Below, piece by piece: positions 36,627 to 38,984 of a stretch of 40,442 nucleotides of DNA (positions are counted from its first letter, which is position 1; each line of letters opens with the position of its first letter). The DNA is from a virus (Duplodnaviria > Caudoviricetes), in the IMG/VR virus record IMGVR_UViG_3300020045_012400, positions 1 through 40,442 of that record. One strand, given 5' to 3'. A program made the translations under genes and the position numbers. Below the pieces are notes generated by a model. It saw nothing but the letters and a program-made list of their open reading frames with translations, had not been told where the DNA came from and searched no databases.

Positions 36627-38984
36627 TTATGGGCCAGCAGCAGAATTTAATCTGGTGCAAAGCAGGTTTCTAATGGCTGTGTCTTGTGTGATGGCTTGCG
36701 CTTGCGCAAACTTCACGGCTAAAGTGGCGTTCTGTGCGAGCATTCCAGAATAGTATGGATCACGATAAATCAGGTTCATGGAATATCCATCCTGATTGAT
36801 GTGAGTGACCGCTTGCTTACCCACAACTGTGTTGTAGTAAACATCGGACGTATTCATGGACGCCGCTCTTGCAACAGGCGCTTCTGAGCTAGTCAGAATG
36901 CGAATGTTGTATACAGATCCATACTCCGATGGTAATGCAGATGCATTAGTTGGGTAGTTCCACTGGCTCAAGAAACCGGAACCACTCAATCCATCAAAGT
37001 CGGTCTGTAACTCTGTAGAAGACAGCATGAAGTATGCTGAACGTACAGGGCCTGTACCAAATCTATCCATACCTTCGATACCGCTCATAAATTTATAAGC
37101 GTTATTTGTATCGAGTGTAGACGCTACTAAGCTGAAATCGGTGATTCCAAGGTTAGTTGGGTTGTCACCGTTCGAACCGCCGCCTGCATAGATCTGCGAT
37201 GCTGCAGAAATGATGTAGTCACGGAGGATAAGCATTCTGTTACTTTTGTGACCACTCTCGTGGCGGGGAAACCTCTTCGGATCTCCCTCAGCACATTTAT
37301 TTATTCGTGCTGTTCAGACTATCGCATCCCTTTCGGGCCAACTCACTTAGTCGTTCACGGTCTCTTTCGAGTTCCGCCTTGTGATCCTGTCGGACTTCCA
37401 AGTCAATTAGAGCCGGTTTATCGAGGACATTATCTCTATCCTCGGCTTGGCGCATCGCCACGGCCAGTCTTTCGCTGACCCAAGCTAACACCATTTCACA
37501 CCAAGCTAAGAGGGCGTGTTATGCATTTAATTTTCTCATTTGTTGGTACATTTCCTCACGAAAATCTAAAGTTTCCTTGGGAATTCCCCCACGACAATGT
37601 TTTACTGAACCATAATTTTCACAAAAATTAAGCAAAGTAAAAACCTGTCCTCTTTTAAAGCGTATATAGTCAAGGATTCGGTGCATAAATCTTATGCATT
37701 CATCCTTGCTCGAAATAGACATTTTATAGGCATATCCCTTTTGCGTGCATGTAGCCTTAGGAATGCAAAAACTACCGAGAGACAAGTTCTCCCTTATATA
37801 ATTTAGACAAGCCGCGGGCACCATAGTCAGCTGCACCATTGGATTATATCTCGCATTAATACTCCCGGAATGAGCCTTTTCTTTTTTTACAGAAAACGAT
37901 CCTTCCGTATCCATAATTCCTGCAAAATACGCCCAAAACTTTGGACACATACTAATTGATGTTGACTGCTGAACAAGAGTATCATTGGCCATCAGAATTT
38001 CTCTATTCAAAGATTGCATTCCAAGAGCATATCTTTCACCATCTCTTTGAGTGAAATTTTCTGCCTTGAGTCTATCCTTTATAAAGTTTGTCATTAATTC
38101 CGCTTGTCTCTTTTTCAACACCAAGTATTTACCAAATCTTTCGATCGCTGCCAAGCATCCAGTCAGACCCCTTACAGACCACACATAAAGAACTTTATGA
38201 TGCGTCTTTTGAGCCTTTTTAATTCTCAAAGAGCCGCCAAAATTCTCATGCAGTAATTCAGACATCCCCTTAAATGCATTACTCAGCTGCAAGCATGGAT
38301 AGTATTTGCCATGAGCCTTCATAATTGAAAAACTCCCATCACCATCCAAAATCCCTGCAACATATGCCATGTCTATCCCTTCTTTCATAGTGAACTCCTT
38401 TACAGGAATTCTACCATGGTGTACTATTTACGCACAAATGATATATTTATGCTGCAACTTGCTCTGTACCCTCTTGATCCTGCAGTATGACCTGTTCATT
38501 TATGATACAGCCAGTACCGAAGAATGCCATTTGAGCATCAATTATCTTTCTGTTACTTATATGACCCAGTTGCATGGCGGAACAGGTTCTTCGACCCATT
38601 CTCATGATCTTCTTTCTATTCATCATGTTCAGACTATTGCATCCCTTTCAGGTTTTCTCGCTTAGTCGTTCACGCTGCTTTCGCTTGCGCCTCGTCAGCC
38701 CATCGGCTTTCCGAGTCAATCAGAGAAAATTTACCCGCGACATAACATTTATCGCGCTGTGGCACCTGGGCCGCAGGATCAATCCCTGAATTCCCCAACT
38801 GCACAATTGGTGGCACAAGGGCTCTAGGTCTCATAAAACGGCAAGTAGTACCGCCATTAGGAGGCATAGAAATTTTATCACAGACCAAAATGTAATTCAT
38901 GGTCGGTGTGGGAACATATAACATCGCAGGAGCTAAGCTCTGCAAAATCATCGGTCCCAAATTACCTGTAGTTGTAATTGACAT
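36627..38984 (-). CDS. Major capsid protein (N4-gp56-like), spliced: join(38751-38984, 38468-38545, 37438-37491, 36627-37232), 323 aa
   Basis: Exons join in frame: ...QVPQRD|IIDAQ...QDQEG|VLAWVSERLAVAMRQAED|LILRD... Capsid-like motifs MPPNGGTTCRF and SEYGSVYNIRILTS; lies after the scaffold gene. Confidence 0.88.
37233..37437 (-). ncRNA. Group I intron 3 (205 nt)
   Basis: Upstream exon ends in U; P1 CGAGGAU/GUCCUCG; P7 GACUA/UAGUC; P3 GGCUC/GAGUU; ends in G; removal restores the frame. Confidence 0.92.
37519..38388 (-). CDS. Double-motif LAGLIDADG homing endonuclease
   Basis: AYVAGILDGDGS and AYFAGIMDTEGS motifs; AAGGAG RBS. Confidence 0.93.
   Translation of the reverse strand: MKEGIDMAYVAGILDGDGSFSIMKAHGKYYPCLQLSNAFKGMSELLHENFGGSLRIKKAQKTHHKVLYVWSVRGLTGCLAAIERFGKYLVLKKRQAELMTNFIKDRLKAENFTQRDGERYALGMQSLNREILMANDTLVQQSTSISMCPKFWAYFAGIMDTEGSFSVKKEKAHSGSINARYNPMVQLTMVPAACLNYIRENLSLGSFCIPKATCTQKGYAYKMSISSKDECIRFMHRILDYIRFKRGQVFTLLNFCENYGSVKHCRGGIPKETLDFREEMYQQMRKLNA
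38392..38437 (-). promoter_or_regulatory. Internal promoter and RBS-sequestering hairpin of the endonuclease gene
   Basis: TTGTGC-18-TAGAAT with an extended -10 TG; hairpin GAAUUCCU-GUAA-AGGAGUUC covers the Shine-Dalgarno sequence. Confidence 0.7.
38546..38750 (-). ncRNA. Group I intron 1 (205 nt)
   Basis: P1 CGCGAU/GUCGCG with U-G at the splice site; P10 GUUAU/AUAAU; P7 GACUA/UAGUC; P3 UUUUCUC/GAGAAAA; ends in G. Confidence 0.92.

Follow-up and report, generated by a model that had tools for sequence, protein, structure and literature searches.

A core-less group I-like intron with its own homing endonuclease in a phage capsid gene, probably spliced by the ribozyme of a neighbouring intron

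The window (the whole stretch of DNA that was analysed, 40,442 nt) is a complete phage genome of ~40 kb with direct terminal repeats, for which no match was found among cultured phages and whose ten matches in genome collections all lie in bins of unrelated taxa. Its minus strand encodes a major capsid protein, the relatives of which carry the name N4-gp56 family major capsid protein. Comparison with solved structures gave no match. Alignment to the intronless homologue P0035 (first 140 residues) reveals that the gene is broken at coding nt 234, 312 and 366. Deleting 38750-38546, 38467-37492 and 37437-37233 yields a stop-free protein of 323 aa, collinear with intronless homologues. The original prediction, that excision of 38467-37492 rejoins capsid exons 2 and 3 in frame, is thus borne out, and all of its coordinates are correct. 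The locus is organised as follows.

38751-38984, minus strand: major capsid exon 1, 78 codons (in-frame removal and homologue alignment)
38546-38750, minus strand: intron 1, a complete ORF-less group I intron of 205 nt at coding nt 234 (family alignment and covariance model)
38468-38545, minus strand: exon 2, 78 nt, the final 8 nt of which form P1 with the guide, the last base being the splice-site U (guide pairing)
37492-38467, minus strand: core-less satellite insert, 976 nt, at coding nt 312, with a terminal G (splice parse and covariance model)
about 38437-38408, minus strand: weak promoter-like site (by eye; missing from the consensus scan)
38395-38400, minus strand: Shine-Dalgarno-like AAGGAG ahead of the endonuclease (by inspection)
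37519-38388, minus strand: ORF of 289 aa for a homing endonuclease with two LAGLIDADG motifs, placed inside the P1 loop, its stop codon forming part of the guide (ORF and Pfam)
37516-37521, minus strand: P10 half of the guide, pairing with nt 1-6 of exon 3 (pairing and family comparison)
37508-37515, minus strand: P1 half of the guide, with the G at 37515 pairing with the splice-site U (pairing and folding)
37497-37506, minus strand: tether strand inside the 16-nt tail (complementarity)
37438-37491, minus strand: exon 3, 54 nt (in-frame removal)
37445-37454, minus strand: tether target in exon 3, abutting the P1 strand of intron 3 at 37444-37438 (complementarity)
37233-37437, minus strand: intron 3, a complete ORF-less group I intron of 205 nt at coding nt 366, and the predicted helper ribozyme (family alignment, covariance model and tail pairing)
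36627-37232, minus strand: major capsid exon 4 (in-frame removal and homologues)

The three interruptions are not of the same kind. Introns 1 and 3 score 193 and 208 bits, respectively, under a covariance model built from 31 complete introns of the capsid gene family (both are in the training set), and both display covarying P1, P3, P4, P5, P6, P7, P8 and P9, helix names that we assigned from what we take to be the usual group I architecture. When the structure assigned by hand is laid over the 31-intron alignment, 97% of 1319 cells are paired (vs 37-39% when it is slid), two-sided changes occur at 32 of 43 pairs among those tested in P1 and P3-P9, and P7 has a bulge and an invariant G-C. Rfam, at its gathering and E-value thresholds, detects none of the three inserts. 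Since it misses even introns 1 and 3, it is no valid test for the 976-nt insert, for which the family model was used instead, and since these two introns are clear group I yet missed by Rfam 15, the subfamily is invisible to standard annotation. A covariance-model search of 37492-38467 had been expected to return no core, and this is what the family model gives: the insert reaches ≤2.8 bits with filters off, and genome-wide only two cores are seen, the next best place scoring 12 bits. Elsewhere in the capsid gene family, a divergent second group I subtype is found (nt 270 intron of locus L045, nt 296 intron of L479).

Although the insert is devoid of a core, it has the boundaries of a group I intron. 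As stated in the original prediction, the 5' exon ends in U and the insert ends in G (at 37492). The guide (37521-37508) is a 14-nt complement of the ligated exon 2-exon 3 junction. Of its base pairs, 8 involve exon 2, the one at the splice site being U-G, and 6 involve exon 3; the looping out of the ORF that had been proposed fits this layout. This guide pattern is unique in the window, where 0.02 chance matches are expected at ≤1 mismatch, and the 8-bp P1 has an ensemble probability of 0.98; since P10 crosses P1 and is invisible to nested folding, its computed probability of 0 is uninformative. Of the hallmarks of an autonomous group I intron, the insert has P1 including its splice-site U-G, a G at the 3' end and P10 pairing to the downstream exon, whereas an internal P3-P9 core with a P7 G-binding site is absent; the lack of a P7-like pair, reported for the 79 nt ahead of the ORF, holds for the whole insert, in which there are two GACUA and zero UAGUC. 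Judged by sequence, the insert is therefore an element that behaves like a group I intron yet fails membership on the core. A 16-nt tail (37507-37492) runs from the guide to the end of the insert; its length and the lack of room for a core are as described before, whereas its role as a mere spacer is not, because the tail is a tether (see below).

Two repeated elements lie in the insert. A GCAGC-RUAA-like motif (38455-38447, minus strand in the window) recurs in satellite loops as well as in the peripheral loops of complete introns, and in one endonuclease group it overlaps, in seven out of seven members, a -35 box 17 nt ahead of TATAAT. A 6-nt repeat at 38452 and 37524 brackets the endonuclease cassette in the window, and if this cassette were deleted, 48 nt would remain, as many as in the short core-less insert (mini) of L481.

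The insert is not an isolated accident. We gathered at least 528 loci (some scans being limited to the best 80 of 222 and the best 120 of about 530 matches), of which 440 have a capsid anchor and were parsed by spliced alignment; the other 88, without such an anchor, were taken as chance matches to the site-264 pattern and left out. Full parses were obtained for 99 of 148 distinct interrupted or partial loci. Among the matches listed, core-less inserts occupy four capsid sites (nt 264, 275, 312 and 342), and every one in the parsed family introduces a frame shift or a stop. Most measure about 29-93 nt, and in the short relatives of 29-50 nt there is nothing besides loop, guide and tail. At site 312, the matches listed include 14 distinct copies of 946-987 nt with an endonuclease, one of 325 nt and no complete intron. 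Misassembly or a recent lethal deletion is ruled out by these 14 diverged endonuclease-bearing copies. At nt 264, L137 has a complete 712-nt intron with the same P1 guide as the core-less minis of that site, which makes it, on the basis of this guide, a candidate ancestor of these minis.

A strict association with complete introns emerges when 99 interrupted and 106 intronless distinct genes are compared. A core-less insert is present in 70 genes, all 70 of which have a complete intron downstream, and 19 genes have a core in that downstream region with the satellite absent; without the loci found solely by insert-specific patterns, the figures are 59 (satellite and core) and 19 (core alone). 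Fisher's test gives p 3e-34 for this link, a value that overstates independence because the genes in these family counts are kin and not independent samples. Four apparent exceptions were dismissed: L350 and L308 are truncated mis-parses rather than satellites lacking a partner, L282 is a fragment of a core intron, and in L479 a divergent core is present. Four inserts gathered later all have a downstream core. Seen from the other side, cores are preceded by a satellite at nt 290 (19/19), 296 (3/3), 303 (10/10), 350 (6/6) and 366 (28/29), and less often at 360 (7/12), 432 (2/11) and 489 (0/6). This near two-way link may reflect block inheritance, homing saturation or mutual dependence.

The endonuclease itself appears to be maintained. 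The ORF in the insert matches Pfam LAGLIDADG_1 (PF00961) with 40 bits in two stretches, and it has the two motifs with their acidic residues, which are kept in 14 of the 14 long site-312 copies. The ORFs are intact in all 14 (about 290 aa), and dN/dS is 0.08-0.25 in 30 of 42 within-clade pairs, the other 12 being saturated; by this measure, the endonucleases are under purifying selection. A promoter consensus scan returned five sites (4.4 expected), and the endonuclease promoter was not among them. The 14 proteins fall into two groups that are about 31-33% identical, with partner introns at sites 360/366 for the group of the window and 350/360/366 for the other. Their closest relatives outside site 312 reside in the P1 loop of complete nt 369 introns (L033, L055), which have the same promoter-ORF-guide layout as the long site-312 copies. 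Such comparisons suggest that the long form arose via core loss or via endonuclease invasion of a mini, and the 93-nt insert of L405, in which both ends of a long copy are kept, looks like the product of an ORF deletion from a long copy. In many complete introns of the family (L278, L317, L339, L469 and others), LAGLIDADG ORFs are encoded on the opposite strand. On the capsid tree (built from downstream capsid DNA, 97 rows, with 44 of 94 forks weak), the 17 carriers require 17 changes, no fewer than shuffles, a scatter that fits repeated lateral gain as far as such a weak tree can tell. Purifying selection and scattered carriers both fit homing, with the same caveat for the capsid tree; the endonuclease likely spreads the insert at the DNA level.

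The guide evolves with the exons that it recognises. Covariation between guide and exons, which the original prediction had proposed to look for in related phages, is found at P10, alongside a splice-site U-G shared by all 75 family copies. At P10 position +3 of site 312 (n=27), the pair is G-C in 16, A-U in 10 and C-G in one, and the pair types (three at site 312, four at site 264) track synonymous exon changes. These features have a direct bearing on two scenarios in which the insert is never spliced out properly. In the first, which we regard as very improbable, there is no splicing and the capsid is made as two pieces, with translation restarting at the ATG that closes the insert in frame (37494-37492). 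Phage Aeh1 is said to offer a precedent, its mobE endonuclease gene splitting nrdA with repair at the protein level; what it shares with our insert is an endonuclease gene inside an essential gene and no ribozyme of its own, the difference being that level of repair. In 24 of 27 site-312 inserts, the last triplet is indeed an ATG or TTG in the frame of exon 3, but a non-start triplet closes the other three copies and, at site 264, 31 of 38, so that a start of their own, expected in all members of an Aeh1 nrdA-type system, is seen in only 24/27 and 7/38. In addition, the same triplets are found at the 3' end of complete introns of the family, and two-piece synthesis leaves the invariant U-G, P1/P10 covariation and the tether unexplained. 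In the second scenario, the least probable of those considered, the insert is a dead remnant or allows exon skipping only (by its P1 and the 3' splice site of intron 3), the phage being defective or its capsid lacking exon 3. Skipping reportedly occurs in a three-intron gene of phage Twort and may well arise here as a side product, but the protein frame of exon 3 is conserved, P10 covaries with the start of exon 3 and purifying selection acts on the endonuclease in copies that have diverged from each other. Inspection also led us to discard ribosomal hopping, as matched take-off/landing codons are missing and an ORF lies in the insert.

If the insert is spliced, which ribozyme does it? The answer seems to be written in the tail. 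In the window, 37506-37497 are complementary over 10 nt to 37454-37445 in exon 3 (-15.4 kcal/mol, shuffle p 0.003). We could extend this test to 75 of 91 core-less calls, the 16 without a complete trusted partner parse being left out, and found that the first 11 nt of the tail name the partner site among about 13 candidates in 68/75 satellites, with seven tails pointing to a wrong site; 59 beat shuffles at p 0.05 and 16 fail. The gap between the end of the tether and the P1 of the partner is 0-1 nt in 65/75. At site 312, tail sequence varies with whether the partner sits at 350, 360 or 366, which it predicts in 6/6, 2/2 and 16/19 copies, respectively. Site-264 tails span up to 168 nt to their partner. 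For the four inserts gathered later, the partner site was predicted exactly in three, and the true site of the fourth ranked second. In a nested ensemble, competition from alternative pairings offered by exon 3 and the guide lowers the tether probability of the window to 0.42, whereas the 26 remaining site-312 copies reach 0.77-1.00. Some site-264 minis with distant partners (96-168 nt; L077, L083, L089, L133, L444) have two-part tails, one segment of which matches the exon ahead of the partner P1 and the other the exon right after the mini. In L479, the sole core downstream of the site-264 mini is of the divergent subtype, and the tail is of the 290 type.

This pattern weighs against the possibility that group I removal is due to intron 1, to an intron released earlier or to whichever core can act in trans, the tail merely aiding folding, which we consider unlikely, though less so than the scenarios above. 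Engineered excision works in trans (PMC2532722, PMC4094466), and the nt 207 intron of relatives appears to act downstream, at nt 243. An upstream core (site 207 or 234) is moreover present in all 12 fully parsed endonuclease-bearing copies, so that co-occurrence alone leaves room for a role of that core there. However, the downstream intron fits the tail better than the upstream intron in 40/42 and it is the P1 of the downstream partner that the tail abuts. The site of intron 1 (234) is filled in 4/27 site-312 carriers, and four short carriers for which the gene start is covered are without any upstream core. The original prediction, that the insert borrows the core of intron 1 or intron 3, therefore holds for the borrowing, which agrees with recurrence, covariation and a downstream intron that is always present, and has to be narrowed for the donor, intron 3 being favoured over intron 1 because the tail tracks the downstream partner.

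Since the insert has a guide and a tail and no core of its own, it is likely removed by the ribozyme of a neighbour, and excision in cis by the catalytic core of intron 3 is, in our opinion, the probable route. From the anatomy, complementarity, covariation and co-occurrence that are seen in these sequences, we infer the chemistry, its order, cis action and homing as follows: (i) P1 would form between the guide and exon 2, with the entire ORF in its loop, (ii) the tail would pair with exon 3 up to the P1 of intron 3, and because it pairs right up to this helix, two P1 helices from one junction would lie beside the core, (iii) the satellite P1 would dock in the intron 3 core and be cleaved by guanosine, (iv) P10 and the tether would bring the terminal G of the satellite to the G-binding site, leading to exon 2-exon 3 ligation, and (v) intron 3 would splice itself out last. 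Homing would be viable only if a matching partner intron is present or copied along. Could a protein instead remove the insert via its guide helices, either a host enzyme or the LAGLIDADG protein as a splicing factor? LAGLIDADG maturases occur in organelles, and a protein may aid folding, but the ORF is absent in 15/27 site-312 copies, and the strict link to a downstream ribozyme together with the U-G/terminal G signature point to group I catalysis, which makes removal by a protein very doubtful. Three public runs contain 5-9% of words, their contigs being short and mostly from relatives, and one RNA run has short contigs of relatives alone, none across the exon 2-exon 3 junction, which is uninformative either way.

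Much smaller inserts exist at other sites of the capsid gene. At nt 243, a frameshifting insert of 1, 2 or 4 nt, after U and ending in G, is found in 10/99 parsed genes (L038, L043, L052, L143, L394, L403, L405, L410, L412, L415), all 10 of which, and no others, have a complete nt 207 intron. The guide of that intron matches the same hexamer ahead of both sites and covaries with the exon past 243, and the nt 243 insert looks like a micro-intron naturally excised by an upstream ribozyme. Four of these genes (L038, of which L531 is the same, L043, L052 and L405) have a single extra G at 243 and lack one G after U at nt 285, giving a stop if read as written, and their synonymous changes keep the original frame. 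It is possible that one G is moved by the ribozyme from 243 to 285, which would amount to insertion editing. A single case at coding nt 21 (L153) consists of a 2-nt frameshifting insert, NG after U, 41 nt ahead of a complete intron.

Group I introns are usually described as cis-acting, self-contained ribozymes, and to our knowledge the excision of a separate segment by a group I core is restricted to engineered versions. Taken together, our observations make a good case for group I introns that form a natural, non-autonomous class: they would home with their own endonuclease and outsource splicing via a tether re-tuned to the position of the partner, so that a single core would serve several introns of an mRNA in the manner of a minimal RNA spliceosome. 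In the capsid gene family, the continuum would extend to inserts of 1-4 nt, recognised by the guide of a neighbour, and possibly to single-G transfer, a form of mRNA editing by a ribozyme. A separation of catalyst and substrate has long been proposed for the origin of the spliceosome (from group II introns), and this widespread natural case would, if true, capture catalyst and substrate parting in evolution. The insert would be a parasite of a parasite, because its endonuclease could carry it only to genes that have a suitable helper. The tether rule (exon pairing up to the P1 of the helper) would provide a naturally occurring blueprint for programmable RNA excision; moreover, it accounts for capsid genes that annotation would label broken.

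How does this compare with known systems? In the openly accessible articles that we searched, we found no report of a natural core-less intron spliced by a neighbouring ribozyme, and core-less introns are not mentioned in the accessible portions of PMC11814242 and PMC6247863. This is apparently a dependent yet mobile type of intron, using a chemistry so far seen in engineered ribozymes only. Group I introns of phages that harbour a homing endonuclease gene in one of their loops are described in PMC3984707, PMC11878797 (Bastillevirinae) and PMC7886860 (capsid gene of crAss-like phages). They share with the insert the U-G of P1, P10, the terminal G, the loop endonuclease and the presence of several introns per essential gene, whereas the insert is without the P3-P9 core and is instead tethered to exon sequence that adjoins another intron. 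Via P1 and P10, engineered ribozymes excise an internal segment bounded by U and G, which can be as short as one G (PMC2532722), and intron removal in trans by an engineered group I ribozyme has been reported in vitro and in E. coli (PMC4094466). Such trans excision-splicing ribozymes and spliceozymes (PMC2532722, PMC4094466, PMC6155759) likewise remove a U/G-bounded segment outside themselves, but they are artificial, act in trans and carry the guide on the ribozyme, whereas the insert is natural, has its own guide and is tethered in cis. The small degenerate introns of fungal rDNA, such as PaSSU of Phialophora (56-81 nt), resemble the insert in missing most core helices while keeping P1, P10 and pairing with the 3' exon. 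They reportedly keep P7 and self-splice alone, with no partner intron or endonuclease described in the accessible text (PMC3160393), and the retained P7 pairing is absent from the insert. Collaborative homing, as far as the accessible text of PMC3984707 goes, resembles the insert in that endonuclease and intron functions are split between elements, yet what is shared there is DNA cutting, whereas what the insert would borrow from its neighbour is RNA catalysis.
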